A stretch of DNA of 64,000 nt from Candidatus Helarchaeota archaeon (GTDB lineage Archaea > Asgardarchaeota > Lokiarchaeia > Helarchaeales > RDOG01), in contig JAHPZH010000001.1 in the NCBI GenBank assembly GCA_019058315.1, positions 71,938 to 135,937 of the forward strand, read 5' to 3'. Shown here one piece after another: positions 22,086-53,636 of this stretch; the first letter of the stretch is position 1; every line of letters starts with the position of its first letter. The position numbers and the translations under genes were made by a program. Under the pieces are notes generated by a model. It was not told the DNA's origin, searched no databases, and worked only from the letters and a program-made list of their open reading frames with translations.

Positions 22086-22115
22086 TGTTCCATATTTCTT
22101 TATGGGGTAAAAATT

Positions 22116-32912: not shown

Positions 32913-33012
32913 TTTTTATTAAAATATATCAAATATACTGAGGTTATAACATATAAATTGGAGTAATAGTTCATAGAGAAATAGAATAATTAAGTTAGAA
33001 AGTCGTGTAGAA

Positions 33013-34086: not shown

Positions 34087-35140
34087 TACGGGTGAAACAA
34101 TATATATCGAGGATGAGGAGCTTCTTATCAGAGATATTGCCAATAAAATAATGAAAGAATACAATCTAGAAAAACCACCAATCTTCTTCACCCTTATGAA
34201 AGAAGACCCAGTATCAGAAACTTATCTAGAAGAAGATGATAAATTAAAAACAATTAATGAAGAAAAATTGGATGTAAAGACACCAATATGGTGGCGATCG
34301 TCAGAAATTGATCTAGATTTAATTTATAAACTTCGAACAGAACGCTATGATAGATCGGGTTATGAGCTAGAAAAAATCGGAAAAACCAAGGTATTAATTG
34401 CAGGTGTGGGATTATTAGGAGCGGATATTGCGTTTGATTGCGCAGTTTTAGGAATAAAGGACCTTACAATAATTGATTATGGGTCTGTAGATTGGTTTAA
34501 TATCTATCGACAAAGTCTCTATTCCAAAAAAGATGTATTTAAATCGAAAGTTGAAGTGGCAAAAGAAAATCTCGAGGATATGGGGGGTGTAAATGTTAAA
34601 TCATTAAAAATTGAGATTCCAAGTTTTATTTATCTGCCAGAAGATAAAAGTATAATACAAAATTCCATTTTAAAAATTGAGCCTGAAGTTAAAAAATGTG
34701 ATATAATAATTACTGCTCTTGATACATTCAGCGCTAGAATGATAATGCAAACTTTAGCTTTAGCAAATGATAAAATCCTTATTAATACGGCGGCTGGTCT
34801 AGTAGGTGGGGTAGTTCAATTAGTGAGAATTAAGCAAAATGATCCTTGCTTGGCATGTGGTATTTATTTTGATAGAAATCAAGATGTGGGTGCGTGCACT
34901 TTGGCATCGTTTGGTACTCCTAAAATCATATCTGGAATTACAATGGAAATTTTGACAAATCTGATTGAAGAAAGAGAAATCAAATATAACCATTTTAAAT
35001 ATATTCCCCAAACTTACCAAATAGAACAAAGTAATTTTATAAAAGGCAAAGAGTTCTGTGATTTTTGCGATAGGGAGAAAGGAATTATATTTAAATATAA
35101 AAATGGAGAAAAAAAAGCCCTAATTGATTGGTTATATTGA
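34049..35140 (+). CDS. E1-like (ThiF/MoeB/UBA family) adenylyltransferase with an N-terminal beta-grasp-like domain
   Basis: Nucleotide-binding VLIAGVGLLGADIA, IDYGSVDWFNIYRQ, Zn-type CLACG and CDFCD pairs, and candidate catalytic Cys GACTLASFG. The N-terminal ~80 aa (KIMFQNPDTGETIYIEDEELLIRDIANKIMKEYNL...) has a bb-a-bb pattern. It overlaps the JAB gene by 38 nt (26 nt if it starts at 34061). Confidence 0.75.
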   Translation: MRMTMKIMFQNPDTGETIYIEDEELLIRDIANKIMKEYNLEKPPIFFTLMKEDPVSETYLEEDDKLKTINEEKLDVKTPIWWRSSEIDLDLIYKLRTERYDRSGYELEKIGKTKVLIAGVGLLGADIAFDCAVLGIKDLTIIDYGSVDWFNIYRQSLYSKKDVFKSKVEVAKENLEDMGGVNVKSLKIEIPSFIYLPEDKSIIQNSILKIEPEVKKCDIIITALDTFSARMIMQTLALANDKILINTAAGLVGGVVQLVRIKQNDPCLACGIYFDRNQDVGACTLASFGTPKIISGITMEILTNLIEEREIKYNHFKYIPQTYQIEQSNFIKGKEFCDFCDREKGIIFKYKNGEKKALIDWLY

Positions 35141-35277: not shown

Positions 35278-36123
35278 ATGGTTGAAATTACATTAACCCC
35301 TAAAAAAGATGCATTCTCTTCAAAAATTCCTCTTGAAGCAGAAATTATTACAACAGATAATCTCGCTGGAAAATCTATTGAGGAAATAAAAAAACTGCCA
35401 GTATGGAAAGGAAATCGTGAAAAAAATCTAGGAGAATTTTTCGATGTAAAAGGAGGAAAAGCAGATGCTCCAGCAGATATAAAAATAATCATCGATGGTG
35501 ATATTCCGATGGTAAAAGGGATTGGAACAAAGATGACTGCTGGTGAAATAGTTGTCAAAGGTAAAGCAGGAATGCACACAGCAGATCTATTAAATGGTGG
35601 AAAAATCACAGTGGAAGGAGACGTAGATGACTTCTGCGGCTCTGAGATGAAAAAGGGAGAATTTATTGTGAATGGAAATGCAGGAAATTACTTTATCGCA
35701 GCAGCTAGGGGTAATTGGCAAGGTATGACTGGTGGAAAAGTTGTAGTTAATGGCAGTGTTGGTTCTGAAATGGCTGCTTGGGTTCGTGGTAAGACGACCC
35801 GGATAGAAATCAATGGAAATGTTAAAGGTTTTGCGGCTGTTCATATGCACGGAGGATTGCTTATCATAAATGGAGATGTTTTAGATAGATTAGGAGCTGA
35901 AATGGCAAGGGGAATTATTATAGTTAATGGAAAATTGGAATCTATTCTACCATCATTTAAATATTCAGGGGAAGTGCAAGAGATAGAAGTGAATGAAACT
36001 GAAAAAATTACTGGAAAGTATTTACAATTCAATGGTGATTACGCCCAATTAGGTGTAAAATCAAAATATTTTGGTAGAATTTTCCTCGCTGCGGATAAGA
36101 ATAAACATTTAATTCCAAAATAA
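35278..36123 (+). CDS. FwdC/FmdC-like GXGXG beta-helix protein (formylmethanofuran dehydrogenase subunit C / GltB C-terminal domain family)
   Basis: MVEITLTPKK...PLEAEIITTDNLAGKSIEEIKKLPVWKGNREKNLGEFFDVKG matches FwdC N-termini and is followed by repeated G-x-G turns. No other fwd genes are adjacent. Confidence 0.65.
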   Translation: MVEITLTPKKDAFSSKIPLEAEIITTDNLAGKSIEEIKKLPVWKGNREKNLGEFFDVKGGKADAPADIKIIIDGDIPMVKGIGTKMTAGEIVVKGKAGMHTADLLNGGKITVEGDVDDFCGSEMKKGEFIVNGNAGNYFIAAARGNWQGMTGGKVVVNGSVGSEMAAWVRGKTTRIEINGNVKGFAAVHMHGGLLIINGDVLDRLGAEMARGIIIVNGKLESILPSFKYSGEVQEIEVNETEKITGKYLQFNGDYAQLGVKSKYFGRIFLAADKNKHLIPK

Positions 36124-36208: not shown

Positions 36209-37375
36209 ATGCCAAAACCTGAAAATTGGATACTTATAAAGGTCCACGCTAATACAAAATTAGATATTCCAAAGACAAAAATTCCACATCATAAAACTTG
36301 CGGGTTTCTTTCAAGAAGATTAAAAAATTTGTTAATGGATTCATTTGCATATGCATTTATTTCAGCAATAAATGAACCATATTTTAAAGTAGCAATAGGA
36401 AAATCTGATGAAGCTTTTGAAAAAAGGTTTTTAAATGTAATCAAGCGAACCTTTTTGAAAGAGCTAGTATTAGAGGTCTTTAGAAAGGGTGGTTTGGGAT
36501 ATGGTAAAAAAGGATACTTAGAACCACTTCCTTATTCAAAGCCCTACTGGGAGTATGACTTCGTAAATGCTAAAAGATTCGATGTTGATGGTAATCTAAA
36601 GGGTTTTATTGATGTAAAAGTTATTTATATTAATTACTCTTCTGAAAAAAACGTTACAATTGAAGAATTAGACACCACAAAAATAAAAAGATCGAAAAAA
36701 GCTTCAAAAGATGCTCCAGATATATCGCATCCTTTAGGAATATTGCTTGAAGCACCATGGCGTCATTATTATAAACTAATTGAACAAACTAAAAGAAAGA
36801 ATGGTGACAAATTAGAGGTTCCATTCGAAATTCTATTCGTTTTAGCACCTTGGTTTGATCAAACAGTTGAAGGTGAAATTTTAGATTTATTAGAAGAATA
36901 TGTGCACCTTGATCATTCTAAAAAATCATTACCTATTCCTTCACAAGTACCTAAATTAATCGAGAGATATTTCCCTCTTGTTGAAGAAAGACCAGCGAGT
37001 TCCGATTGGATTTTGGAAAACTGGAATAAAATTTATGATGTTATTGGTTATGAGGCCGAGAGATCTATTAAAGATTTAGAAGGATTTTGGTTATGGGTTT
37101 TGGGTGTTGTCGACAAAGGAAAAGCAAAAAAATTCGTGAATGTATACTACGATGATCAAATAATGATGAACATTGAAGGAAAAGATACTGCGATCTGGAG
37201 CTCTGTGGTTCCCCCACCATATCCGCGAATTTATTCTTCTTATCTTAAAAAGAAAGAAGCTGGAGAAGACGTATCTCCTCCTGATATCGATCCGGATCAT
37301 CCAGATTATAATTTGAATAACCATGCAATCGATGTTTTTTCAGATGATGTAAAACCAATAACAGATTATATTTAG
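36209..37375 (+). CDS. hypothetical protein
   Basis: 388-aa ORF with no recognisable motif. Confidence 0.5.
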   Translation: MPKPENWILIKVHANTKLDIPKTKIPHHKTCGFLSRRLKNLLMDSFAYAFISAINEPYFKVAIGKSDEAFEKRFLNVIKRTFLKELVLEVFRKGGLGYGKKGYLEPLPYSKPYWEYDFVNAKRFDVDGNLKGFIDVKVIYINYSSEKNVTIEELDTTKIKRSKKASKDAPDISHPLGILLEAPWRHYYKLIEQTKRKNGDKLEVPFEILFVLAPWFDQTVEGEILDLLEEYVHLDHSKKSLPIPSQVPKLIERYFPLVEERPASSDWILENWNKIYDVIGYEAERSIKDLEGFWLWVLGVVDKGKAKKFVNVYYDDQIMMNIEGKDTAIWSSVVPPPYPRIYSSYLKKKEAGEDVSPPDIDPDHPDYNLNNHAIDVFSDDVKPITDYI

Positions 37376-38560: not shown

Positions 38561-40063
38561 TTGAAAAGTTATGACGTAATTATCATTCATCCACCAAGAG
38601 TAATGGAACCAGATTATGGTAAGCACACAAAATTTGTTCGAAGTACATATATTTTTATTCCAATGGGTGTTTTTGCAATTGCTGACTTTCTTGAGAGGGA
38701 AGGGTTTGGAGTTAAAATTATTAATTATCCTTTAGAGCAATATTTAAACCGGAAATGGTCTTTGGCTGAGTTTCTTAAAAAAATTAATTTTAAGGTATGT
38801 GGAATAGATTTACATTGGATCCACAACGCACATGGAGTCATTGAAACTGCAAAGATTGTGAAAGAGGTAAATCCTAATGCTAAAGTGGTTTTCGGAGGTT
38901 TTAGCGCTTCTTATTATCATGATCAATTATTGAAATACTATAAAAATATTGATGCAGTAATTAGAGGAGAAGGTGAAATTCCTCTTTTGAATTACGTTCG
39001 TAATACTAATAAAAATCATGATTTAGATTCTGTGGCTAATTTATCTTATCGAAATGCCTCTAATCACATCAAAATTAATCCTATTTCTTATGTAGCAAAA
39101 TCATTGAATGAATTCAATTTTACTAATGTAAATCTCTTAGAGAATGCAAAAAAATATTTCGAGTATAGTAGAAGAATTATGGGAATTTCTCTTAATCTAC
39201 CCATAGCTAGAGGATGTCCCTTCAATTGTCCTTGTTGTGCAGGAGGGCAAAGGGCTCAACAAAAATTATCGGGACGGGATAAGGTAATTTTCAGAAACCC
39301 AGAAAAAGTAATAGAAGATATCCACAATATCTTGGATAAATATAACATCCCTAGCGTTTTTTTTGGACATGGTACCTATCCCACAAATTTGAAATATTGG
39401 AAAAATCTTTTTAAATTGATTCGTAAGGAAAAGTTCGATATTAGCGGTGATTTGGAAATATGGAGGCTGCCATATCCCAAAGATATGTGGGAATTGTTTT
39501 ATAAGACCTTCACTCGTAGACATTCATCGATTAGTATTTCTCCTCGAACTATGTCTACAAATGTACATAATAAGGTTGCAAAAATCTGTGATCCTACTTT
39601 TCAATTTCCTAAAAATCAAATTCAAGATTTAATAAAAAATGCAAATTTATTCAGAATGACTCTAAGAATATGGTTAACAATAGGTTATCCATTTCAAACC
39701 CGTAGAGATGTTCTTAAAGATTATTTATTTACAATAAAATGTCTCATAAAATATGGAAGTTCCAATTTCAAACCAATTACTATTATGAGTGAACCATATT
39801 ATATTTTTCCTGGTTCACCTGCTCATGAGGATCCCAAAAGTTTTGGAATCAAATTAGATTATAATTCCTTTCCACAAATAGTTGATGCATTTAAAAGAAT
39901 AAAAGTAACATATACAAATAGAGTTTTAAACTATGAAACTAAGTATTTTTCGAAAACCACAAATCTTATAATAAATGATCTATTATTTTTAACTGCTGCA
40001 CCCATGTTTTTAACGAGAGGTGCGAAATATCCCAAAGAAAAAGATGTAACTATTTTTAAGTAA
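38561..40063 (+). CDS. B12-binding-domain radical SAM enzyme (class B)
   Basis: TTG start. The N-terminal Rossmann-like YDVIIIHPP...GVFAIADFLEREGFGVKIIN is typical of the class B cobalamin domain. The CxxxCxxC is ARGCPFNCPCC. Confidence 0.7.
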   Translation: MKSYDVIIIHPPRVMEPDYGKHTKFVRSTYIFIPMGVFAIADFLEREGFGVKIINYPLEQYLNRKWSLAEFLKKINFKVCGIDLHWIHNAHGVIETAKIVKEVNPNAKVVFGGFSASYYHDQLLKYYKNIDAVIRGEGEIPLLNYVRNTNKNHDLDSVANLSYRNASNHIKINPISYVAKSLNEFNFTNVNLLENAKKYFEYSRRIMGISLNLPIARGCPFNCPCCAGGQRAQQKLSGRDKVIFRNPEKVIEDIHNILDKYNIPSVFFGHGTYPTNLKYWKNLFKLIRKEKFDISGDLEIWRLPYPKDMWELFYKTFTRRHSSISISPRTMSTNVHNKVAKICDPTFQFPKNQIQDLIKNANLFRMTLRIWLTIGYPFQTRRDVLKDYLFTIKCLIKYGSSNFKPITIMSEPYYIFPGSPAHEDPKSFGIKLDYNSFPQIVDAFKRIKVTYTNRVLNYETKYFSKTTNLIINDLLFLTAAPMFLTRGAKYPKEKDVTIFK

Positions 40064-40202: not shown

Positions 40203-40778
40203 TTGAAAGACAATAGCTTTTCTAAATTATTTGTATTAAGCTTCATAATATTTATTTTTAGTTCTTTAATGCTCCCAATTATCAAATATTTTATTGATAT
40301 CATCGCTGAAATGTTATTTGTATTCCAATATAAATTCTTTTATCAATTTCATATCAACTTTAATTTATTATTATTCGAAGAAATTCTTCCCTATTTGATT
40401 TTAGCTTGGTTAATTAGTGAAATGTTCATTTGTCCTTGTATAATTAAAGCAAGACTCTCCAAGAGATTCAAAAATTTTATTTTAAGTTATATAATGAAGA
40501 AAAAATTTGACCATTTCGAATTTAATTCAATAAAATATGAAAATAAAAGGAAGCAATCCAAAGAGAAGAAAACTAGTGATGAAATATATGTTCATTTTAC
40601 TCCTAAATTAGGAAAAAATGAATCCCATTTTAATCAAGAGAGAATAAAATATAATAATAATCCTCCTGATTATAATATTTCAAATTTTTTAAGAAAATTT
40701 TCAAATATCTTTAATATTTTTTTATTATTTTTTTCAAATTTTTTTTCAAACCTATGTTCACTATGGAGGGGGAAATAA
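40203..40778 (+). CDS. hypothetical membrane protein (low complexity; coding status uncertain)
   Basis: 191-aa TTG-initiated ORF, Phe/Ile/Asn-rich, with 2-3 hydrophobic segments. It could be an AT-rich artefact. Confidence 0.3.
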   Translation: MKDNSFSKLFVLSFIIFIFSSLMLPIIKYFIDIIAEMLFVFQYKFFYQFHINFNLLLFEEILPYLILAWLISEMFICPCIIKARLSKRFKNFILSYIMKKKFDHFEFNSIKYENKRKQSKEKKTSDEIYVHFTPKLGKNESHFNQERIKYNNNPPDYNISNFLRKFSNIFNIFLLFFSNFFSNLCSLWRGK

Positions 40779-40901: not shown

Positions 40902-42305
40902 TTGGATTGGAAACCCGAAATAAATGAATTATATGAAAAAGTAACAAGTCAAGTACCAGAAGCATTTCGAGATGCTGTAAAACCAATGCTTAGGCAAGCT
41001 GCAGAGAAAGCTGCGATACTCCGTAATTCTGCCTATGTAAGCGAAGATGATTTACTGTCATCTCTATTTGATATTACACCAGAGGCATTTAAACCAACGG
41101 TTGTATCAGATTTGGAAAATTTAGGAATTGCTACAGGAAAATATATTGAACTATCAGAGATAAGAAAAGACTATTCACGCACTTGGGATGAGATTAGTGG
41201 AGCATTTCTACCAGGGGTGTATCATTTTACTATGTTTTTAACTGATAGATGTAATCAGAAATGTATGCATTGTGCTGCTGAAAATCCTATACATCGTCCC
41301 GAACTCTCAACTGAACAATGGATTCAAATTATAGAAAATGTTGAACAGACCCTTAGAAAACGTGGTAGAAGGGGTTGCTATATATGGTTTGGTGGTGATC
41401 CAACTTTACGTAAAGATTTGAAAGATCTTATAAAATACTGTGGGGAAAAAGGTTATTACCAAGCAGTTTCAACTAATGGAATGCTATTTACAGAAGAACT
41501 TGCAAAACTTTGTGCAGAAGTTAAAATGTCACATGTTTTTATTAGCTTTGATAGTGTTTATCCTGAAAGAGCTGCAAAGATAAGAGGAGTTCCAAAAGCT
41601 TACGAGGCAGCAGAAAAAGCTATTAAATTAGCACTGAAATATGGCCATTTTGTAATTTGTACAGCAACAGTACAAAAAACCAATTTTGACGAACTTGATG
41701 AAATAAAACAACTCATGGAGAGTTGGGGTGTAATCCCTTATTTCAGAGCCGTTATAAAACAGAGAAGTGCTGCAGTAAACTGGGATGAGATTGGACTAAG
41801 TCATGAGGAATATAAAAAGTTCTATGAATTTAAATATAAACATGTTGTTGAGGCTATTAGAAAAGGTGAGGGTTCATCTCTCAATAAATTCTATACTTAT
41901 GATATGGTTCCTTTTATGGAATGTCCAATAAATATAAAAGAACTTACTGCACTTGAATGGGGAGTTGGTTGTCAAGCATGTCGGTCAGTTTCGGGTATAG
42001 ATATAAATGGAGATTTTTTTCCATGTGATTATCCTTCAGAATTAACTCTTGGAAACGTATTAAAACAACCCTTCGATGAAATAATGGAATCTCAGCTTTT
42101 TAAGGATATAAGAGATAGAAAAAGAATCGGCAAATGCGCATCATGTCACCATCTCGAATTGTGTGGAGGAGGTTGTCGAGTACATGCAGAATGTGAGACT
42201 GGAGATTTTTTTGAATCATTTCCGTATTGTTGGCATGAAATGGATCATAAACATGAAGAAATTGCTGAAGTTCCTAAAGAAAAAGAGATACCCGCAAGTA
42301 AATAA
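40902..42305 (+). CDS. radical SAM/SPASM enzyme with an N-terminal PCP_red-like module (paralog 1; NirJ/AhbC/AhbD-like core)
   Basis: TTG start preceded by GGTGAG. CxxxCxxC is DRCNQKCMHC. The C-terminal auxiliary-cluster Cys pattern is GVGCQAC...FPCDY...GKCASCHHLELCGGGCRVHAEC. The N-terminal 80 aa is shared with three neighbouring proteins. Confidence 0.8.
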   Translation: MDWKPEINELYEKVTSQVPEAFRDAVKPMLRQAAEKAAILRNSAYVSEDDLLSSLFDITPEAFKPTVVSDLENLGIATGKYIELSEIRKDYSRTWDEISGAFLPGVYHFTMFLTDRCNQKCMHCAAENPIHRPELSTEQWIQIIENVEQTLRKRGRRGCYIWFGGDPTLRKDLKDLIKYCGEKGYYQAVSTNGMLFTEELAKLCAEVKMSHVFISFDSVYPERAAKIRGVPKAYEAAEKAIKLALKYGHFVICTATVQKTNFDELDEIKQLMESWGVIPYFRAVIKQRSAAVNWDEIGLSHEEYKKFYEFKYKHVVEAIRKGEGSSLNKFYTYDMVPFMECPINIKELTALEWGVGCQACRSVSGIDINGDFFPCDYPSELTLGNVLKQPFDEIMESQLFKDIRDRKRIGKCASCHHLELCGGGCRVHAECETGDFFESFPYCWHEMDHKHEEIAEVPKEKEIPASK

Positions 42306-42329
42306 TTTAAATGAATATGGTGTAAATTC

Positions 42330-43742
42330 ATGGAATGGGAAGAAGAAACCAAAGATTTATACAAAAAAATAACTGAAAATATTCCTGAAGGCTTTCGGAA
42401 CTCAGTAAAACCCTTAATTTACGAAGCAGCAGAGAAAAGATGCGTAGAACGTAATGGATCCTATGTTAACGAAGCAGATTTAATAACTGCAATTTTTGAT
42501 ATAACTCCAGAAGCATTTAAAGCTATGATGACTGATGATCTAAAATCCTTGGGGATTAACGTTGAAAGATACATTGAACTTAAAGATATTAGAGATCGAT
42601 ATAGACTTTCATGGCAAAAGCTAGAAGATGCTTTTCATCCGGGAAATGTACACTTTGCAATGTATATTACAGAAAAGTGTAATCAAAAATGTTTGCATTG
42701 TGCCGCAGATGAAAAAGTTGAACGCCCTGAGTTAACAACAGAACAATGGTGTGAAATAATAGAGAATATTGAGACAGGATTGAGAAAAAATGGTCGACGT
42801 GCTTGTTTTATATGGTTTGGAGGAGAGCCCACATTGCGGGAAGACATCCATGATATCATGAAGTTCTGTGGTGATAAAGGTTACTATCATGCAATAATAA
42901 CCAATGGTGTGAGGTTTGCAGAAGAATTTGCTAAATCTTGCTCTGATAATGGAATGAGCCACGTTTTTGTGAGTTTCGACAGTGCAGATCCTATAAAAAA
43001 CGATAAAATACGCGGAATGCCCGGTGGAAAAACCTTAGAATCGGCAAAGAAAGCAATCGATAATTGCTTGAAGTATGGTTTATTCGTTTGCTCATCAATA
43101 ACCGTAATGAAACATAATATTGATGAACTTGAAGATCTAAAAGCAATATCCGAGAGTTGGGGTTCACAACCATATTTTAGAGCAGTGGTTAAACAAAATA
43201 GAGCTGCTGATTATTGGGATGAAATTGGTTTAAGTCAAGAGGACTATAAAAAATTATATGAATTTAAGTATAAACATGCCATAGAAGCTATAAGGGATGG
43301 AAAGGCAGGAACTCTACCAGCATACGAAATATATGAAATGACACCCTTTATGGAATGTCCTAAGGACGACAAGGAAATGACTGGAATTGAGTGGGGTGTT
43401 GGATGTCTCGCTTGCAGAACTATGATGGGCATTGGGGTTGATGGAACTATATATCCTTGTGGTTATCCTACTAAACTGACACTAGGTAATGCATTGAAAG
43501 ATAAATTTGAAGATGTTCTTAATACACAAATTTATAAAGATATTCGAGATAGGAAGCGCACTGGTAAATGTGGAGAATGTCACCACCTTAAATATTGCGG
43601 TGGAGGATGTAGAGTGCATACAGAATGCGAAACTGGGGACTTCTTCGCTTCTTTCCCTTACTGCTGGCATGAAATGGATCATGAACATGAAAAACTAGAA
43701 GGTTTTGTTAAGGAAAAAGAATTAGAAATTATAAAGAAATAA
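42330..43742 (+). CDS. radical SAM/SPASM enzyme with an N-terminal PCP_red-like module (paralog 2)
   Basis: EKCNQKCLHC, GVGCLAC...YPCGY...GKCGECHHLKYCGGGCRVHTEC. Roughly 55-65% identical by eye to 40902-42305 over its full length. Confidence 0.8.
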   Translation: MEWEEETKDLYKKITENIPEGFRNSVKPLIYEAAEKRCVERNGSYVNEADLITAIFDITPEAFKAMMTDDLKSLGINVERYIELKDIRDRYRLSWQKLEDAFHPGNVHFAMYITEKCNQKCLHCAADEKVERPELTTEQWCEIIENIETGLRKNGRRACFIWFGGEPTLREDIHDIMKFCGDKGYYHAIITNGVRFAEEFAKSCSDNGMSHVFVSFDSADPIKNDKIRGMPGGKTLESAKKAIDNCLKYGLFVCSSITVMKHNIDELEDLKAISESWGSQPYFRAVVKQNRAADYWDEIGLSQEDYKKLYEFKYKHAIEAIRDGKAGTLPAYEIYEMTPFMECPKDDKEMTGIEWGVGCLACRTMMGIGVDGTIYPCGYPTKLTLGNALKDKFEDVLNTQIYKDIRDRKRTGKCGECHHLKYCGGGCRVHTECETGDFFASFPYCWHEMDHEHEKLEGFVKEKELEIIKK

Positions 43743-43752
43743 AAATCAAAAA

Positions 43753-44166
43753 ATGGAGTTGATGAAAATTATAAACACGAAAGAAGAATGGGAATCTTAT
43801 TTAGATAAATTCATAGAGGGTTATAATATTTTACCTGAGTTACCTGCAATAATTCAATCCATAGCCCCATTGGTTTTTAATTATGTAATAACTGATCGCC
43901 CAGAAATGAGCTATTGGTTTTTAATAGAAAAAGACAAAATAAGTTGGGGATTGGGGCAATATTCTGGAACTAATCATCCAACTATCATCCATAAGACTGA
44001 TTTTGAGACCATGAAAAAGGTTAATTCAGGTGAGACTGATCCTATTCAAGCAACAATGTTGGGGACTTATAATGTCGATGGTGATGTTTCTAAACTCATG
44101 GCATGTGCATCCTTACTTCCGCTTGGAGTAAAAGCACATGCTTATGCTCTAGAAAAAATAAAATAA
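43753..44166 (+). CDS. SCP2 (sterol/lipid carrier) domain protein, UbiT-like architecture
   Basis: 137 aa. The C-terminal pattern DPIQATMLGTYNVDGDVSKLMACASLLPL resembles the SCP2 signature (A---G-l-i-GD---l--l--l). Confidence 0.55.
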   Translation: MELMKIINTKEEWESYLDKFIEGYNILPELPAIIQSIAPLVFNYVITDRPEMSYWFLIEKDKISWGLGQYSGTNHPTIIHKTDFETMKKVNSGETDPIQATMLGTYNVDGDVSKLMACASLLPLGVKAHAYALEKIK

Positions 44167-44178
44167 TGGAGTAATAAA

Positions 44179-45387
44179 ATGAATTTTAAATATAATACAG
44201 ATATAGAAAAGATGCATTATGATATTATAAAGGCTGCTAAACTCGCTGATGCTCCATACAATGAAGATATAATTCAAAGAATTCTTAAAGCTTATAAGGA
44301 TTTTTTTAGAGGTTCGGTTGTTACCTTTGTAACTTCAACTAAGCCAAAGAACAAACGCACTCTGTCAATCCGTTATGTGGAAATAGATGTTAAACATGAT
44401 CCTTATGAAATTGCGATATCTAATAATCTACTTAAACAAGAAAAACATTTAATCCACCATTTATTAACCGAAATTAAAAGTAATTATCCCATTATGGGGT
44501 ATGGAGTGGATGCTGACGTAAATTATGGTGTAACGAAAATTTGGAGTTTCTTTCAAATTCCACAACCCTTAGAAAAAGCATTTAAAACACCTGCAGTTCC
44601 TGAAAGTATCCAGAAATTTACAGATTATTTTAAAAAATATGACCTTGATGTTTTTCATCTATTTGCTTTAGATTTCCGTAATAAAACTGCTAATGTATAT
44701 TTTATGGTGAAGGATCCAAAAGCAAACCCAGCTGATAAGGTTGCGAACATGATTTCAGACTTAGGTTTAAAAGTTCCATCACAAGAGATACTTGAACATT
44801 GCTCCAAAGCATTAACAATTTATCTTACATTTGCGTGGGAATCCTCCATGGTTGATAGAATATGTTTCGGAACTGCCGTTGATGATCCTAGCTTGATCCC
44901 AACACATTTAGACCCATTATTAAAAAAGTATTCACAAAATGCACCATTTCAATCAAAAAATCGCCTATTTATTTACAGTATAACACCATCACGTTCAGGT
45001 GACTATATCAAAATCGAAAATGATTATATGGGGGAGATGATTAATTTAATGAAATCTGGAATTCAAGCTGAAGTTTGGATGGATGACTTAAAAAAACAAA
45101 GAGAAAATGTTCAGCCAAAAACTGTTGAACTAAGTGGGGTTAAGTGGGTAGATGGAGTTTCAATATTATTTGAAAAAATTACAGATGATATTCCCGAGAC
45201 GTTCCGTTCATTTGTAAAACCTATGCTGCTTGAAACTGCCGAAAAAAAAAGTCAAATTAGAAATGGAAATGGAATTACTGAATCGGATCTTATAACTGCA
45301 CTATTAGAAATAACACCAGAACCATTCAAACCTGACGCAATTAATAATTTGAAAAAATTAGGAGTAGATATGCAAAAATATATTTAA
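44179..45387 (+). CDS. ABBA-fold aromatic prenyltransferase (NphB/CloQ family) fused to a C-terminal PCP_red-like module
   Basis: By-eye alignment to remembered NphB blocks: GSVVTFVTSTKP-KNKRTLSIRY vs GGSVVVFSMASGRHSTELDFSI; YGVDADVNYGVTKIWSFF vs FAIDGEVTGGFKKTYAFF; LFALDFRNKTANVYF vs MTSMDYKKRQVNLYF; VDRICFGTAVDDPSLIP vs IDRLCFAVISNDPTLVP. No TM segments. The last 80 aa form the shared module. Confidence 0.65.
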   Translation: MNFKYNTDIEKMHYDIIKAAKLADAPYNEDIIQRILKAYKDFFRGSVVTFVTSTKPKNKRTLSIRYVEIDVKHDPYEIAISNNLLKQEKHLIHHLLTEIKSNYPIMGYGVDADVNYGVTKIWSFFQIPQPLEKAFKTPAVPESIQKFTDYFKKYDLDVFHLFALDFRNKTANVYFMVKDPKANPADKVANMISDLGLKVPSQEILEHCSKALTIYLTFAWESSMVDRICFGTAVDDPSLIPTHLDPLLKKYSQNAPFQSKNRLFIYSITPSRSGDYIKIENDYMGEMINLMKSGIQAEVWMDDLKKQRENVQPKTVELSGVKWVDGVSILFEKITDDIPETFRSFVKPMLLETAEKKSQIRNGNGITESDLITALLEITPEPFKPDAINNLKKLGVDMQKYI

Positions 45388-45426
45388 TTCTTAATTTTTT
45401 GATCACAAAATAAAAATTAAAAGGAA

Positions 45427-46836
45427 GTGATTGCAATTCAATTTACTGTAGCAACAAATTGGGATTTTAAACTAATAGATGAATTAGCTAAATACCCTGT
45501 GAAAGATATTTATGGAGTTGCAAAATTTTCGATAGTTGGTCATGGTAGACCCTCATTTTTATTAAATGAAGTTTCAGAAGAAGAAATTGCGGAGTATATT
45601 CGAAAAATTCATGAGAAAAAAATGAAATTTTCTTATTTATTAAATGCACCTTGTATGAATAACATGGAATATGATGCTGAATATCATAAAAAGCTGTTAA
45701 ATTACATTCAATGGATTTGTGATATTGGATCAGATAATGTAATAGTTACAACACCTTTTTTAATCAGTCTTATTAAAGAACAATTTCCAAAATTGAAAAT
45801 TCGGGTTTCAACTATAGCCCACGTTAATAGTGTGAATCGAGCAAAATTCTATGAAGCATTGGGTGCAGAAGAAATCACTCCTGATGTAATGATTAATCGC
45901 GATTTTAAGACTTTGATAAAAATTAAAAAAGCAGTGAAATGTGACATTGTTCTGCTTTTAACTGATGGTTGTTTATATCAATGTCCCTTTAGATATTATC
46001 ATTATAATATCCTTGGGCATTCTTCCCAATCTTCCCACATACTTGGAGGTAATTATGTAGATTTTTGCATATTAAATTGTAGTGCTATTAAATTCTCTAA
46101 TCCTACCGAAGTAATTAAAGCAAGATGGGTTCGCCCTGAAGATTTATCCCATTATGAAGCTATCGGGATTGATAAATTTAAAATTGCTGGACGCCGTATG
46201 CCTACTAAATGGATTCTTCGAGCAGTGAAAGCATTTTCTTCTCGAAAATATAATGGGAATCTTATAGATATAATCCAAGGTTTTTCTATGTCCGTTGGGG
46301 TTGAGAAAGATCCAAATGCTAAATTTATCGACACGATTGATAAAGAGCCTAAAGCAAAACTTATAATTGATAATACTAAATTGGATGGTTTTATTGATTT
46401 TTTTAAAAAACAAGATTGTATATCAATGTGTGATGACTGCAAATATTGTGAAAATTGGGCAAAAAAAGCTGTAATTCTTGATAAAGAGCAAGCTCCTAGG
46501 TATGTCGAATCATTAGAAGGTTATATTAAAGATATCACTACGAGCCGAGAATTTGGTATTGAATCGGTTAAACCAGAAAAGAAGAAGAAAAAAGGCTTAG
46601 AATGGAATCCTGAAACTGAAAAAATTTTTGAGGATTTAATTCAACTATCTCCCCAACAATTCCAATCAATGGCAAAGATGGTTATTTCTTCAATGTCAGA
46701 AGAAAATGCAAAAAAAAGAGATTCTAAGGTAGTAGAAAACCAAGATATTGTAAAAGCATTTATTGCTGGAACTCCTGAACCTTTTCAAGCAGATATGAGA
46801 GAAGGACTTAAAAAATATGGTCTATTAAACGAATGA
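45427..46836 (+). CDS. peptidase-U32-family protein (UbiU/UbiV/RlhA superfamily) fused to a C-terminal PCP_red-like module
   Basis: GTG start. The N-terminal FTVATNWDFKLIDEL...YGV...GHGRP and FSYLLNAPCMNN...NRDF...LLLTDGCLYQCPF pattern matches a U32 subfamily, with Cys ligand candidates. The last 77 aa form the shared module. Confidence 0.65.
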   Translation: MIAIQFTVATNWDFKLIDELAKYPVKDIYGVAKFSIVGHGRPSFLLNEVSEEEIAEYIRKIHEKKMKFSYLLNAPCMNNMEYDAEYHKKLLNYIQWICDIGSDNVIVTTPFLISLIKEQFPKLKIRVSTIAHVNSVNRAKFYEALGAEEITPDVMINRDFKTLIKIKKAVKCDIVLLLTDGCLYQCPFRYYHYNILGHSSQSSHILGGNYVDFCILNCSAIKFSNPTEVIKARWVRPEDLSHYEAIGIDKFKIAGRRMPTKWILRAVKAFSSRKYNGNLIDIIQGFSMSVGVEKDPNAKFIDTIDKEPKAKLIIDNTKLDGFIDFFKKQDCISMCDDCKYCENWAKKAVILDKEQAPRYVESLEGYIKDITTSREFGIESVKPEKKKKKGLEWNPETEKIFEDLIQLSPQQFQSMAKMVISSMSEENAKKRDSKVVENQDIVKAFIAGTPEPFQADMREGLKKYGLLNE

Positions 46837-46877: not shown

Positions 46878-47501
46878 TTGAAAACTGTTATAATAACCTC
46901 ACCACACCCCGATGATGCTGTATTAGGTTGTGGTGGAACAATCATCAAATCCATCCAAGAAAATACACAAGTTTATGTCATTTATCTAACAGATGGAAGG
47001 GCTTGTTATACTTATCTTAAAATTAAATCCAATTTAACTCCATCAGATGTTGCAGCAGGAAGAAAGAAAGAAGCAATAGAAAGTTGTAGAATTTTAGGAG
47101 TTCCAGAATCAAATCTAAAATTTCTTGAAATTTGGGATAGAGAACTTGGGAAACCAAAAAATTTTAAAAAAGCACTAGCTGCTGTAAAAGAATTAGTGAG
47201 AAAAACTAATCCTTATAGAATCTTTGGTCCAGTTTTTAAAAATAGACATATTGATCATCAAGCAACCCATGATATTATATTAGAAGTTCTTAAAGATTGT
47301 CCTGATATTGAATTTTATATGTACGGTCTTCAGAAATCTATTGGAAAATCAGATTTAAAAATTGATATAACTAGTGTTAGAGAACAAAGAGCAAAAGCTA
47401 TGTTTATTCACGAAATTGAGCTTGTTTATGAAAGAGATATTTATAAAATTTTAGCAAAACAAACAAAGGAAAGATTTAGATTATATAGAAGAAGTAATTA
47501 A
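46878..47501 (+). CDS. PIG-L/LmbE family N-acetylglucosaminyl deacetylase
   Basis: TTG start. SPHPDDAVLGCGGT zinc-binding motif plus a downstream HIDHQATH. Confidence 0.75.
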   Translation: MKTVIITSPHPDDAVLGCGGTIIKSIQENTQVYVIYLTDGRACYTYLKIKSNLTPSDVAAGRKKEAIESCRILGVPESNLKFLEIWDRELGKPKNFKKALAAVKELVRKTNPYRIFGPVFKNRHIDHQATHDIILEVLKDCPDIEFYMYGLQKSIGKSDLKIDITSVREQRAKAMFIHEIELVYERDIYKILAKQTKERFRLYRRSN

Positions 47502-48252: not shown

Positions 48253-48945
48253 TTAAAGAACCGCGTTTCCAATTAAGTTTCCAATCTCAAAATTTTTCTG
48301 AATTTCATGTCCAATCTTTTTATACTTTTCTATTTTCGATTCTGGAACTTTTAAAATTCGTAAAAATGGCTCAATTTCATTTATTTTTGCGAAATATATT
48401 AAATCATTATTTTCTCTTACTTCCTTTATTAAATCTATTTCCTGTAGATTAAAAAGAAAATCTTGGACTATTTGAGATTTTAATTTAGACTTTTTTGCTA
48501 ATATGTTCAAATTGATACCAGGCTCTAATAAAATATATTCCAAAATCCTAAAAATCTTGTCATCTCTAAGTAAAAGAATATTATTATCTAATTCTGAATT
48601 TATTTTGAAATCAAAATAAGTTATTTTATTTTTAAATCTCCTACTTCTTATATATTCAAATTTCTCAAGCATCCTTAAGTGCCAAGCTGTCTGATGAGGC
48701 GATAACTCTAGATTTCTTTGAATATCTCTTAAATGAGCGCCTGGGCTGTTGAAAACGTATTCATAAATTTTGTTCCTTGTATTGTTATTTAAGACGGAAT
48801 CTTTTGTTATTTTAGAATCTTCAAATAAAACTTTTTTTGAAAATAATCCGTAAATCGCTTGATTAATTTCAACATTCGAATATTTTAAGTTTAAAACGGA
48901 AATAGTGTATAATTTTTCAACATTTAAAGGACTTACTTTAACCAT
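48253..48945 (-). CDS. double winged-helix (ArsR/TrmB-like) protein, copy 1; the true N-terminus may lie upstream
   Basis: Two wHTH-like units (IYEYVFNSPGAHLRDIQRNLELSPHQTAWHLRMLEKFEYI and ILEYILLEPGINLNILAKKSKLKSQIVQDFLFNLQEIDLI). It is a paralog of 52831-53580 and lies directly downstream of a giant surface protein gene. Confidence 0.65.
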   Translation of the reverse strand: MVKVSPLNVEKLYTISVLNLKYSNVEINQAIYGLFSKKVLFEDSKITKDSVLNNNTRNKIYEYVFNSPGAHLRDIQRNLELSPHQTAWHLRMLEKFEYIRSRRFKNKITYFDFKINSELDNNILLLRDDKIFRILEYILLEPGINLNILAKKSKLKSQIVQDFLFNLQEIDLIKEVRENNDLIYFAKINEIEPFLRILKVPESKIEKYKKIGHEIQKNFEIGNLIGNAVL

Positions 48946-49044: not shown

Positions 49045-52000
49045 TTATTTGATATTCTCAAGATATCTTAGAAATTCCTCTCTTTCTTTTGGAGATAAAC
49101 TAGCTAATTCCTTTAGAATTGTTGCTTTTTCAGCGTTATCCGGAATGTTTAATTTTAAAATTCTTATTACTTCATCTTCAGATAAGAAGGAAATGTCTCG
49201 CTTTAAATCAGTTAAATATTTTTCCTTTTTGAGTCTATTTAATAAGAATTCTAAATTAGCAGAGCTATCTTTTTTATGTTCCATTCGAGGAGCTAAAGAA
49301 TCTATTTTTTTCTTCTTCTTTGCTAATTTCTGCTTCGATATTTTTTGCTGAGTTGAGGTTTGTCTTTTTCTTATTACAATAACACCCACAGTGCCAGCTG
49401 AGGCTCCTACTATTCCAATTATTATAATTATAATAGTTATTGTATTATTAGGTGGTGGTATCCAAGGAATCCTAAAAGGACCTTTTATTTTTATTTTTAT
49501 AATTAATGATTCACCTGTATTATTTGCCTCATCAACTGGAATTATTTCGTACGTATATTTTTTCTTTGAAGCGTTGAGATCCATATAATACGTTAAAGAT
49601 GTTATTCCCAAATATTCTCCGTCTCTTCGAATAATATAATTTACAGAATTATTATCTGCCGATGGAAACCATGAAATTGTGATATTACCTGATTGGATTA
49701 TAACGCTTTTATATGTTGGTTTTGTGGGAGGAGTATCATCGAATGTTAAAATTATTGTCGTTATATTTTGATTCCCGAATGTATCATTAGCTCTTATCCA
49801 AAATTGAACTACTTGATCACTATTGAAACTTGATAAATCAATATCGAAAGAACCAACAAATGAATTTGTCCAAGTTAACTGTGTAACATTTGCCCTCCAT
49901 TCCACAGTTGAAATATCTAGATTATCATCAGTAATAGTCAGATATATAAAGGCTGGCTTATTTAAGACTGTTTCATTCTGAGGAGAATCTAAGACAATTG
50001 AAGGGTTAATACTATCTGTATCCCATGTTGCAATATCCAAAACCCTCGCCGATTCACCAGTTATTGTATGTGTGTCATTATAGATAACCATAACAGTATC
50101 TCCAACTTGAACCAAGATTATATCTGAAGGATCGTTACTTGAACTCGTACTAAATGTGAAATTCCCTGTAAATATGCCAGTAGTTGGTCCAGTCTCACCT
50201 AACTGAACTATTATGCCAGAATTATCACTAGAACTATTTACATTGACATCAACATAATCATTTCCACCCGTTGTATCTAGATCTGAATCTATTACTGTTA
50301 TCATAGCAACTGTTCCTGTTCCGTAATATGCAGTTGAATCCAAAGTTATGGATCCTGTTACTGTTTCGATCCAGGTTGCTGTATCTACCATTTGTGCTGA
50401 AGCACCAGTAACATCATATAAGTCATTATAAATCACCATAATTATGTCCCCATCTTGAGCACGAATAATATCCAAAAGATCACTACTAAAGTTACTGCTG
50501 AATGTGAAATTTCCCATAAATATACCTGTCGTTGAACCAATTTCAGTTAATTGAACATATATTCCACCCACGTCACTTGAACTATTAACAAGCACTGTTG
50601 CATTATCAGGCGAAGCCGATATGTCTAGATCTGAATCATTTAACATTATATTCGCAACAGCATCTGTTCCATAGTAAGTTGCTGAATCTAAATTTACGAT
50701 ACCAGTAACTGTCTCAATCCAAATGGCTGTATCATTTAAGCTATCATGAATTACCATGATAGTATCACCATCTTGAGCCCAAATAATATCTAAAGGATCG
50801 TTGCTTGAAGTAGTGCTAAATGTAAAAGTTCCGCTAAATATAGCTGAATTGACTGCTGTTTCAAATAATTGAACCATTATACCTGGATTATCACTTGTGC
50901 TATTTACAGTTACGTTTACATTTTCAATAATTGTAGAATTCAAATTATAACTACTATCAATAACCGTTATAGTTGCTATTGCTGCTGTTCCATAGTAGTA
51001 TGTTGAATCAAGATCTAAAGTTATAGTCACTGTATCTATCCAGATTGCAGTATCTTTTGGTTGTGCGAAAGCTCCAGTAATTGTATGTGAATCATTATAC
51101 ATTGACATAATAGTATCACCATCTTGAGCCCAGATTATATCTGCAGCATCATTACTTGAGGTATTGTTGAATGTAAAACTTCCAATAAAAATGCCTGTAG
51201 TAGCTCCAGTTTCATCTAAACGAACAACAATTCCAGTAGGATCGGAGGTACTATTTACATTCACATCTACATAATCCATTGCTCCCGTTACATCCAGATC
51301 TGAGTCGACAACTGTTATAGTAGCTATAGCCCCAGATCCAACATAAGTAGGAGAATCTAGATCTATGGTTCCTGTAACTGTTGCAATCCAAATTGCACTA
51401 TCTAATGTTTGGGCTGGCATACCTGTTACAGTGTGAGAATCATTATACCTCGTAGTTATTATATCACCATCTAGAGCTAAAATTATATCTAAAGGGTCAT
51501 TACTTGCGGTAGTGCTAAATGTGAAAGTCCCCATAAATACTCCTGTTGTTGGACCTGTTTCAATTAATTGGACATTTATACCAACAATATCGCTTGTACT
51601 GTAAACATCTACGCCTACGCTATCAGGCGCCCCCGTTATATCTAGATCCGAGTCGCTTACTGCAATAACAGCAATTGCTGCTGTTCCATAATATTGAACC
51701 TCATCTAAAATTATGGTTCCAGTCACCGTCTCAACCCAAGTCGCGGTATCTGTAACATTATCATGAATAGCCATAATAGTGTCTCCGTCTTGAGCCCAGA
51801 TTATATCCGCAGGATCGTTGCTTACTATAGTACTAAATGTAAAAAAGCCTGTAAAATAACTTGTATTAACTCCAGTTTCAGTTAATTGAACAGAAATACC
51901 CGTGATATCAGTTGAACTATTAACACTAACATTTACGATATCAAGAATTGTAGGATTTAAATTATAACTAGTATCAAAAACCGTTATATTAGCGATTGCC

Positions 52001-52527
52001 GAGACTCCATAATAAGTAGTAGCATCTAATTCTATAGTTTTACTTGCTGATTCTAACCATGTTGCACTATCGCTTAGACTAACATTGTCATGTGCAACAA
52101 TAGTATCACCATTTTGAACTAGAATAATACCCAATGTATAATTACTTTCAACTGTGCTAAATGTAAAATTCCCTATGAATATACTAGTATTATATCCAGT
52201 TTCTATTAAATCAATTATGATACCAATAGAATCACTAGAACTATTTACGAATATCCACGCAGTATCATTGGCTCCCTCATCAAAATTATATAATTCCTCA
52301 TTTAGGGTTATGGTAGCAACTGCACTCGTTCCATAATAAACTTCAGCATCTAAATTAAGTGTTCCCCTAATTTCCATGGTATAACTATCATTTTCATAAG
52401 GCATAGAAAGTATTGAACTATTTAAATTACTTGAAGAGATCAAATTTGCAAAACTTATGAAAAATATTACTGTTATTGTAAAAGTCAAAGCTATCTTAAG
52501 TCTTTTATTTTTCATTTTACTCACCAA
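49045..52527 (-). CDS. giant (1160 aa) repeat surface protein with an Fn3-like domain, a TM segment and a conserved cytoplasmic tail
   Basis: Signal/anchor N-terminus, seven ~105-115-aa repeats, a membrane-proximal region shared with 53637-56432, TM (IIIIIIGIVGASAGTVGVIVI), and a ~130-aa cytoplasmic tail. Confidence 0.85.
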   Translation of the reverse strand: MVSKMKNKRLKIALTFTITVIFFISFANLISSSNLNSSILSMPYENDSYTMEIRGTLNLDAEVYYGTSAVATITLNEELYNFDEGANDTAWIFVNSSSDSIGIIIDLIETGYNTSIFIGNFTFSTVESNYTLGIILVQNGDTIVAHDNVSLSDSATWLESASKTIELDATTYYGVSAIANITVFDTSYNLNPTILDIVNVSVNSSTDITGISVQLTETGVNTSYFTGFFTFSTIVSNDPADIIWAQDGDTIMAIHDNVTDTATWVETVTGTIILDEVQYYGTAAIAVIAVSDSDLDITGAPDSVGVDVYSTSDIVGINVQLIETGPTTGVFMGTFTFSTTASNDPLDIILALDGDIITTRYNDSHTVTGMPAQTLDSAIWIATVTGTIDLDSPTYVGSGAIATITVVDSDLDVTGAMDYVDVNVNSTSDPTGIVVRLDETGATTGIFIGSFTFNNTSSNDAADIIWAQDGDTIMSMYNDSHTITGAFAQPKDTAIWIDTVTITLDLDSTYYYGTAAIATITVIDSSYNLNSTIIENVNVTVNSTSDNPGIMVQLFETAVNSAIFSGTFTFSTTSSNDPLDIIWAQDGDTIMVIHDSLNDTAIWIETVTGIVNLDSATYYGTDAVANIMLNDSDLDISASPDNATVLVNSSSDVGGIYVQLTEIGSTTGIFMGNFTFSSNFSSDLLDIIRAQDGDIIMVIYNDLYDVTGASAQMVDTATWIETVTGSITLDSTAYYGTGTVAMITVIDSDLDTTGGNDYVDVNVNSSSDNSGIIVQLGETGPTTGIFTGNFTFSTSSSNDPSDIILVQVGDTVMVIYNDTHTITGESARVLDIATWDTDSINPSIVLDSPQNETVLNKPAFIYLTITDDNLDISTVEWRANVTQLTWTNSFVGSFDIDLSSFNSDQVVQFWIRANDTFGNQNITTIILTFDDTPPTKPTYKSVIIQSGNITISWFPSADNNSVNYIIRRDGEYLGITSLTYYMDLNASKKKYTYEIIPVDEANNTGESLIIKIKIKGPFRIPWIPPPNNTITIIIIIIGIVGASAGTVGVIVIRKRQTSTQQKISKQKLAKKKKKIDSLAPRMEHKKDSSANLEFLLNRLKKEKYLTDLKRDISFLSEDEVIRILKLNIPDNAEKATILKELASLSPKEREEFLRYLENIK
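50037..52380 (-). repeat. seven tandem ~105-115-aa coding repeats (beta-sandwich-like)
   Basis: The unit A-W-ETVTG-I-LDS--YYGT-AIA-ITV-DSDLD-TG--D-V-VNVNS-SD--GI-VQL-ETG-TTGIF-G-FTFST--SND--DII-AQDGDTIM--YND recurs seven times. Confidence 0.8.
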
Positions 52528-53580: not shown

Positions 53581-53636
53581 TTGGCTTATTTTATATTCAC
53601 CTCAAAATTAATTACGTTTAAAAATTAAAAAAATTT

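Follow-up and report, generated by a model that had tools for sequence, protein, structure and literature searches.

A helical module carried by the enzymes of a conserved Asgard gene cluster: a candidate adaptor in a putative lipid pathway

The locus studied here raises the question of why enzymes of different fold should carry the same small helical domain. It lies in a 64,000-nucleotide stretch of DNA from a Candidatus Helarchaeota archaeon (GenBank assembly GCA_019058315.1, contig JAHPZH010000001.1, positions 71,938 to 135,937), hereafter named the window. According to the list of open reading frames (ORFs) and to Pfam, the region from 38.5 to 47.5 kb of the window is one run of co-directional genes, in which two radical S-adenosylmethionine (radical SAM)/SPASM enzymes, an ABBA aromatic prenyltransferase and a U32-family protein each bear one copy of the module. 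We found that this module is an autonomous domain with a confidently predicted fold and a restricted host range, and that it is conserved across the cluster in related genomes. As for its role, we tentatively favour that of a tethered, pathway-specific adaptor, which would couple these enzymes to a shared partner (an SCP2-bound lipid intermediate or an assembly), although this reading falls a little short of being probable. The four carriers and their modules are as follows.

40902..42305, plus strand: radical SAM/SPASM enzyme 1, 467 amino acids (PF04055, 76 bits; PF13186, 40 bits).
40908..41147, plus strand: module copy 1, residues 3-82 (N-terminal) of radical SAM/SPASM enzyme 1 (DUF2621, 23.2 bits; PCP_red, 15.5 bits).
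42330..43742, plus strand: radical SAM/SPASM enzyme 2, 470 amino acids, paralogue of enzyme 1 (PF04055 and PF13186).
42336..42575, plus strand: module copy 2, residues 3-82 (N-terminal) of radical SAM/SPASM enzyme 2.
44179..45387, plus strand: ABBA aromatic prenyltransferase, 402 amino acids (PF11468, 215 bits).
45145..45384, plus strand: module copy 3, residues 323-402 (C-terminal) of the prenyltransferase, an unusual placement, nearly all relatives carrying the module at the N-terminus.
45427..46836, plus strand: U32-family protein, 469 amino acids, probably an iron-sulphur (Fe-S) enzyme (PF01136, 48.5 bits; conserved cysteines).
46603..46833, plus strand: module copy 4, residues 393-469 (C-terminal) of the U32 protein, after a lysine-rich linker; the most divergent copy (DUF2621, 28.3 bits).

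The four segments, 77-80 amino acids long, were aligned without gaps over 80 columns, 13 of which are invariant. By BLASTP, the modules of the prenyltransferase and of radical SAM/SPASM enzyme 2 were 48% identical (E 1e-28) and those of the U32 protein and the prenyltransferase 28% identical (E 1e-12), and no match was obtained between the modules of the U32 protein and of radical SAM/SPASM enzyme 1. When profiles leaving out one copy at a time were run against the six-frame translation of the window, all the omitted copies were recovered (E 1.9e-27, 8.8e-30, 8.5e-27 and 5.4e-12), and the next best segment of the window reached only E about 1. The window contains exactly four modules, at the places given in a preliminary description of this DNA; the significance of their alignment, on which that description had made its case depend, is confirmed by the leave-one-out values (E 5.4e-12 to 8.8e-30). 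The same description had spoken of four consecutive, otherwise unrelated carriers, and here it must be amended, since a module-less SCP2 gene (43753-44166) stands between the second radical SAM/SPASM gene and the prenyltransferase gene, and two of the enzymes, radical SAM/SPASM 1 and 2, are paralogues with 58% identity over 465 amino acids. Their translations contain the motifs CNQKCMHC and CNQKCLHC, of the CxxxCxxC type.

In the AlphaFold2 model, obtained from an alignment of 82 sequences, the module is a compact four-helix domain (predicted local distance difference test score, pLDDT, 93.3; predicted template modelling score, pTM, 0.81) with helices at positions 3-14, 18-38, 46-56 and 59-71. 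The residues conserved throughout the family are W1, P17, F20/R21, A32/E33, R39, D48, T57/P58, F61, L69 and G73. No conserved cysteine or histidine was found in the family, which makes a metal, Fe-S or other cofactor site unlikely, and the module probably binds no cofactor.

The preliminary description had likened the first half of the module to PCP_red (PF08369), the domain found at the C-terminus of the BchB/ChlB subunit of dark-operative protochlorophyllide oxidoreductase (DPOR). This half (W...P.F.R...AE..A..R....V.E.D) does match the 45-residue PCP_red model, and 20 of the 82 family members are detected with it at E<0.01 (best 5e-7). Within the window, however, copy 1 is the single match (15.5 bits, E 0.018, the gathering cutoff being 32.5), the other three copies giving none; moreover, the module has twice the length of the model and its hosts are radical SAM/SPASM, ABBA and U32 proteins instead of a nitrogenase-like subunit. 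The best profile match is DUF2621 (PF11084), which detects 58 of the 82 members at E<0.01 (best 1.3e-11) and to which the module aligns at model positions ~56-137 of 139, the N-terminal ~55 positions having no counterpart in the module. The isolated U32 module scored 28.3 bits with DUF2621 (cutoff 27.7), and the other three window modules 23.2, 24.4 and 15.5 bits, all under the cutoff. Because DUF2621 matches better, the proposed likeness to PCP_red holds only as a distant relationship at the superfamily level. The module, an autonomous domain, belongs to the DUF2621/PCP_red superfamily and, on these profile scores, is to be classed as a divergent DUF2621 member or a sister family. DUF2621 has no assigned function, so that the match names a fold family and not a mechanism.

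No solved structure in the Protein Data Bank (PDB) was significantly similar to the module by sequence profile or fold, and no BchB or ChlB chain was retrieved from it by profile or Foldseek search. The weak top matches were all histone-fold chains (CHRAC-14, H2B), with profile E of 0.012 or worse. A histone fold of the H2B or NF-YB type was considered and rejected (Foldseek E 0.27-0.8, root-mean-square deviation 7-9 Å; hhalign probability against HMfB 1.8%), as was the histone handshake geometry, since the modules of a natural tandem pair do not pack on each other in the AlphaFold2 model.

To assess how widely the module occurs, 1.84 billion cluster representatives were searched with a profile, without filters. 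Only 271 matches were obtained at E<=1e-3, a number that still includes false positives: among the 150 listed, a few dozen long multi-stretch matches are tetratricopeptide-repeat proteins matching 'PEAF.PDLA'. A ubiquitous low-complexity helix, which would have refuted the preliminary description, is thereby ruled out. Host classes were assigned by comparing the true matches with the catalytic cores of the window enzymes. The 232 instances collected comprise 64 C-terminal modules on U32 proteins, 54 N-terminal modules on radical SAM enzymes, 36 N-terminal and 3 C-terminal modules on prenyltransferases, 10 modules on long U32 proteins, one on an SCP2 protein, 56 short or stand-alone modules and 7 others; the short proteins (80-117 amino acids) may be stand-alone modules, and some of them are contig fragments. 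The module therefore does occur at either terminus, as had been proposed, and the terminus varies even among the prenyltransferases.

The survey of domain architectures yielded a narrow and recurrent set of hosts: radical SAM/SPASM enzymes, U32 proteins, ABBA prenyltransferases, SCP2 proteins and few others. The rare hosts include enzymes of an accessory, pathway type, namely a class I methyltransferase, a PNPOx-like flavoprotein and an HpaB-like protein; a LuxC-like/radical SAM fusion was observed as well. Natural fusions of the module with SCP2 also exist, with the architectures SCP2-linker-module (P0048) and U32-module followed by two to three SCP2 domains, with or without a second module (P0130, P0042). 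In addition, a NuoE-like 2Fe-2S protein bears two modules, and a cysteine-rich protein (P0148) bears one. These last two hosts would suit a docking site for an electron donor or acceptor (ferredoxin or flavodoxin) shared by the Fe-S enzymes of the cluster, and radical SAM and U32 enzymes need redox partners (U32 Fe-S clusters: PMC6747719). Such a site is nonetheless highly improbable as the function of the module, given that prenyltransferase, methyltransferase and SCP2 carriers do no redox chemistry and that the B12-dependent radical SAM enzymes of the cluster need reduction and yet lack the module.

Nothing was found in the literature on the role of DUF2621/PF08369 domains or on this Asgard cluster. 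Homologues of the U32 protein are publicly named 'U32 family peptidase' or 'collagenase-like PrtC family protease', and some of them carry a precomputed PF11084 annotation. An exact-protein look-up gave no record identical to the window prenyltransferase, and a genome scan queried by the prenyltransferase alone gave no relatives.

In order to place the cluster among its relatives, GTDB species genomes were scanned with a four-sequence U32 alignment, which gave 65 loci. The closest belong to metagenome-assembled genomes (MAGs) of Promethearchaeota (Loki), Thor-, Hod-, Hermod- and Helarchaeota, with U32 identities of 55-86%. The recurrent Asgard order is B12-binding radical SAM enzyme, ~240-residue membrane protein, two module-bearing radical SAM/SPASM enzymes, in some cases a second B12-binding radical SAM enzyme, module-bearing prenyltransferase, SCP2 protein and module-bearing U32 protein. 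Two to five module-bearing genes are present in 27 of the 37 Asgard-type loci, and four or more in 18. Not a single module carrier was present in the 25 loci with module-less U32 genes; 24 of these are bacterial (Dehalococcoidia, other Chloroflexota and Omnitrophota), and their U32 homologues, 36-49% identical, are accompanied by no other gene of the cluster. This indicates that the module is tied to one conserved cluster, in agreement with the preliminary description. The remaining genes of the cluster region in the window are the following.

38561..40063, plus strand: B12-binding radical SAM enzyme, TIGR04190-like (PF02310 and PF04055), without module; the first gene of the conserved cluster.
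40203..40778, plus strand: hydrophobic ORF of 191 amino acids without Pfam match, in the position of the conserved ~240-residue protein with multiple transmembrane segments.
43753..44166, plus strand: stand-alone SCP2 lipid-binding protein, 137 amino acids, without module (PF02036, 22.3 bits; cutoff 21.3).
46878..47501, plus strand: PIG-L family de-N-acetylase, directly downstream of the U32 gene (PF02585, 92 bits).

The B12-binding enzyme scored 249 bits with TIGR04190, which is under the model cutoff, and its orthologues (57-70% identity) are found upstream of the radical SAM genes in most Asgard loci. Orthologues of the SCP2 protein (59-67% identity) adjoin the U32 gene in most of these loci; in the window the SCP2 gene is two genes upstream of it. 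No PIG-L gene was found beside the cluster in related loci, and whether the de-N-acetylase belongs to the cluster is uncertain.

The ~240-residue protein, which has no Pfam match, is encoded between the B12-binding enzyme and the first radical SAM/SPASM enzyme in 21 Asgard loci (for example, L001 7274-8017 and L002 2922-3632). It has a conserved hydrophobic N-terminal part of ~110 amino acids, with the motif SGNSFF.P..P...WFLP...Q.I..S.G.LID, and a poorly conserved C-terminal half rich in asparagine, lysine and tyrosine. The window ORF at 40203-40778 is short and aligns only loosely with it, so that the homology is weak. This protein could be a membrane anchor or a partner for the pathway.

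A bacterial version of the cluster was found in a Pseudobacteroides MAG (locus L038, 2439-21191), which encodes three module-bearing U32 proteins, three module-bearing radical SAM/SPASM enzymes and one prenyltransferase without module. The genes around them encode a UbiG/UbiE-like methyltransferase (below cutoff), two HemN-like radical SAM enzymes, a B12-binding radical SAM enzyme, a HEAT-repeat protein, a NUDIX hydrolase and a 3-deoxy-D-arabino-heptulosonate 7-phosphate (DAHP) synthase. This locus suggests horizontal spread of the cluster and the use of a shikimate-derived aromatic precursor. A U32-plus-module gene that is 70% identical to the Asgard proteins was also observed on a 5.9-kb contig of a bacterial MAG labelled Candidatus Deferrimicrobium (L024, 477-1919), and represents either binning contamination or recent transfer.

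What the cluster makes was approached through its enzymes. The window prenyltransferase matches the PF11468 (PTase_Orf2) model over positions 2-284 of 287, and its relatives in the PDB are AmbP3, AmbP1, EpzP, NphB and CloQ (E 1e-49 to 1e-18), all of which match residues 6-291 only; by these matches it is a bona fide small-molecule ABBA prenyltransferase. In the U32 protein, Cys182, Cys186, Cys214 and Cys218 are conserved in close relatives (C186 and C218 in 9 out of 9 aligned sequences), and a second cysteine cluster is present at 331-341, from which it is probably an Fe-S enzyme. It is remote from characterised U32 enzymes (TrhP model, 32.8 bits, cutoff 534), its only PDB relative is 5D88, and the 'collagenase-like protease' label that public records give to this key enzyme is probably misleading. 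The two radical SAM/SPASM enzymes reached the cutoff of no equivalog model, the nearest NCBIfam models being AhbD, AhbC and NirJ, all far below. Taken together with the SCP2/U32 pair, the B12-binding radical SAM enzyme and the shikimate and methyltransferase genes of L038, the prenyltransferase and the radical SAM/SPASM enzymes are read most economically as an anaerobic pathway to an aromatic lipid that is prenylated, hydroxylated and methylated. For a tetrapyrrole, the other substrate that the preliminary description had envisaged, there was no specific support, and the gene content points to the prenylated aromatic lipid instead.

Next to about a third of the Asgard clusters (11-12 loci), genes for a LuxE acyl-protein synthetase, a family 2 glycosyltransferase and a CDP-alcohol phosphatidyltransferase were observed (for example, L001 3021-5421, L003 5971-8361, L033 3481-8264 and L016 12797-16509); in L033 the transferase genes have the same orientation as the membrane ORF and the U32 gene. 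None of the three is present in the window. This trio hints at a link between the cluster and the synthesis of membrane-lipid head groups.

The closest known counterpart of such a pathway is in ubiquinone biosynthesis. In E. coli, ubiquinone intermediates are bound by SCP2 proteins (UbiJ and, by proposal, UbiT), which also organise several enzymes into one complex; the O2-independent hydroxylation by UbiT, UbiU and UbiV is recognised by its pairing of an SCP2 protein with a U32 Fe-S protein, and UbiT-UbiU fusions exist (PMC6747719). The window resembles this system in that its SCP2 protein is encoded near a U32-family protein, in that U32-SCP2 fusions occur in both, and in its chemistry, which we take to be anaerobic and to act on a prenylated aromatic compound; the UbiJ-centred metabolon also provides a precedent for an SCP2 protein that organises several enzymes. 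There are clear differences. The window U32 protein is only distantly related, with no UbiU or UbiV match, and its cysteine spacing (C-x3-C-x27-C-x3-C) is not the published CX6CX15CX3/4C. UbiU and UbiV form a heterodimer of two U32 paralogues, whereas the window cluster has one U32 gene; its prenyltransferase is a soluble ABBA enzyme and not UbiA; and radical SAM/SPASM and B12-binding radical SAM enzymes are added. To our knowledge, no Ubi protein carries the module.

Two extra U32 paralogues were noted upstream of the module-bearing U32 gene in nine Asgard loci (L006, L014, L016, L021, L023 and L028 among them; in L016, 6763-7914 and 7910-9970). The first has 384 amino acids and no module and no longer matches PF01136; the second, of ~687 amino acids, contains a divergent module in its interior and, beyond it, ~180 residues of uncharacterised sequence. 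The two are candidates for a UbiU/UbiV-like pair.

A different comparison is with the PqqD-like recognition element (RRE) of ribosomally synthesised and post-translationally modified peptides (RiPPs), a small domain that, like the module, is present on unrelated enzymes of one pathway, often N-terminally on radical SAM/SPASM enzymes, and also exists alone. The module might thus be a new, all-helical element that recognises a peptide or a protein, perhaps the conserved membrane protein, as its substrate. Its place at the N-terminus of radical SAM/SPASM enzymes mirrors that of RRE domains, B12-binding radical SAM methylases and prenyltransferases occur in RiPP pathways, and the cluster includes a conserved ORF of unknown function. 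We give this explanation very little credence. The predicted fold is all-alpha: four helices and only single-residue bridges are present in the module models, instead of the winged helix with three-stranded beta-sheet of the RRE, and no sequence relationship between the two was detected. Unlike RRE systems, the window cluster has no precursor peptide gene, its prenyltransferase is closest to small-molecule ABBA enzymes, and the SCP2 protein, the SCP2 fusions and the DAHP synthase of L038 argue for a small aromatic substrate of lipidic nature. The ~240-residue membrane ORF was considered as a precursor and rejected, since it has multiple transmembrane segments and only its hydrophobic N-terminal part is conserved.

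Another question is whether the module serves the enzyme on which it sits. Module-less homologues are known for all three enzyme types, such as the U32 proteins of Dehalococcoidia (~45% identity) and the Pseudobacteroides prenyltransferase (48% identity), and on this comparison the module is dispensable for the catalytic folds. Some Asgard radical SAM/SPASM proteins of ~500-530 amino acids lack the N-terminal module and have SCP2 as their C-terminal domain (L022 15385-16971 and 17003-18511; L023 3477-4988; L028 3477-5018), which suggests that an enzyme of this family takes either SCP2 or the module as its accessory domain. An enzyme-intrinsic accessory domain, which would pack on, stabilise or regulate its own catalytic domain, for instance by shielding an Fe-S cluster or by homo-oligomerisation, and would have no common partner, would owe its presence on several enzymes to common ancestry and to domain shuffling within a co-inherited cluster. 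The strict clustering of the modules by host class, as expected of fusions made long ago, their class-specific conserved residues and the lone module carriers found in some loci (for example, L030, L031 and L033) all agree with this explanation. It appears improbable nevertheless, because the three host folds are unrelated and the ABBA prenyltransferase has no Fe-S cluster, because the module changes terminus within one enzyme family, because stand-alone and tandem modules exist, and because homologues work without it.

Tandem modules arose in one Asgard U32 protein (P0162, L026), by duplication of linker and module. In the AlphaFold2 model of this natural pair both modules were well folded (block pLDDT mostly 85-98), the 15-residue linker was disordered (pLDDT 36) and the overall pTM was 0.49. 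Just after a B12-binding radical SAM gene of another locus (L003, 12878-13072), a 64-amino-acid ORF was observed that corresponds to a U32-type module without helix 1, and it is probably the remnant of a duplicated linker-module unit similar to that of L026.

We therefore return to the tethered adaptor introduced above. According to this reading, the module would join soluble enzymes (radical SAM/SPASM, ABBA prenyltransferase and U32 Fe-S enzymes) of an O2-independent pathway to a common partner, most likely the SCP2 carrier loaded with a hydrophobic, prenylated aromatic intermediate or, alternatively, a multi-enzyme assembly around that carrier. The greasy intermediate could then be passed on between the enzymes while staying inside the complex. 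The binding partner, the hand-off and the chemistry of the product are what we infer; the adaptor is suggested by the flexible tethers and the indifference of the module to the terminus, by hosts that are restricted to one pathway and include non-redox enzymes as well as a ferredoxin-like protein, by the SCP2 fusions and the replacement of the module by SCP2 on some radical SAM enzymes, and by the Ubi metabolon. Docking or substrate presentation, as the preliminary description had proposed, is plausible on account of the flexible lysine-rich tethers (the linkers that join U32 and SCP2 proteins to their modules are rich in lysine), the SCP2 fusions and the 2Fe-2S protein with two modules.

Several observations weigh against the adaptor. 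The modules of the natural tandem pair do not pack on each other with confidence and resemble beads on a string, so that the self-association for which the preliminary description had proposed modelling found no backing. The B12-binding radical SAM enzymes of the cluster never bear the module. No SCP2 protein was found among the ORFs of the bacterial locus L038, either by BLAST with the window SCP2 protein or with Pfam, despite its six module carriers. The N-terminal modules of prenyltransferases are separated from the enzyme by linkers of only ~6 amino acids, which suggests that the module is packed in a fixed manner on the enzyme. Finally, module identity is 47-61% within a host class and 21-43% between classes, and each class has its own conserved positions and surfaces. 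This clustering and the class-specific conservation indicate that the fusions are old and that the module co-evolved with its enzyme; the clustering would suit roles specific to each enzyme no less well than a single common partner and, judged by it, the modules are not one interchangeable tag.

Most of these data suit a substrate-recognition or lid domain, which would bind a common prenyl tail or aromatic head, or would cap the open active site of its host. The folds of radical SAM, ABBA and U32 enzymes are all open barrels, as is well established, and the module is present on all the enzyme classes that have to deal with the shared hydrophobic intermediate. The short linkers of the N-terminal prenyltransferase modules fit a fixed lid, and the class-specific conserved surfaces fit co-evolution with the active site of the host. 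The homology to PCP_red at the superfamily level points in the same direction. Conceptually, the nearest parallel is the RRE domain, through which many RiPP enzymes recognise a single leader peptide; another possible parallel is the homologous C-terminal region of BchB, which helps to enclose protochlorophyllide in DPOR. Against a lid, a compact four-helix domain of 80 residues can hardly accommodate a lipid pocket, the cluster already encodes SCP2 as its dedicated lipid binder, a lid would not usually be attached by tethers as long, disordered and lysine-rich as those of the U32 and SCP2 proteins, and no BchB or ChlB chain is among the sequence or fold matches in the PDB. We regard the lid as possible but doubtful. 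It is the class-specific conservation, the short prenyltransferase linkers, the lack of an SCP2 match in L038 and the negative tandem model that keep both the lid and the enzyme-intrinsic domain in consideration beside the adaptor.

If the favoured adaptor is carried to its full extent, Loki-, Thor-, Hod-, Hermod- and Helarchaeal lineages would produce, without O2, a new aromatic lipid that is prenylated, hydroxylated and methylated, by soluble enzymes that the module, as a new docking domain, organises into an SCP2-centred hand-off complex, and the lipid could be a quinone-like membrane redox carrier. This proposal is unlikely to hold in all its parts. The domain family of the module and the logic of SCP2 plus U32 were known already; what is new is the presence of one DUF-type domain on nearly all the enzymes of a conserved, presumably anaerobic Asgard cluster. 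Should the module be a recruitment domain, it would offer a simple genetic marker for a class of anaerobic clusters for lipid or quinone-type biosynthesis, and an 80-residue soluble handle on how hydrophobic intermediates pass between soluble enzymes.

Some further observations were made elsewhere in the window. Large ORFs (357-821 amino acids) without Pfam match at E<=1e-4 are present at 19620-24515, 27038-28309, 31320-34086 and 36209-37375; for the last of these the limit was 1e-2. A GXGXG-motif protein (PF01493) at 35278-36123, which resembles subunit C of formylmethanofuran dehydrogenase and the C-terminal domain of glutamate synthase, adjoins a ThiF-family protein at 34049-35140. On the minus strand downstream of the cluster, two paralogous helix-turn-helix (HTH) proteins (48253-48945 and 52834-53601), 57% identical and with an HVO_0163-like N-terminal HTH plus a winged helix, flank a repeat-rich protein of 1160 amino acids (49045-52527, minus strand) that is probably secreted or exposed at the surface.

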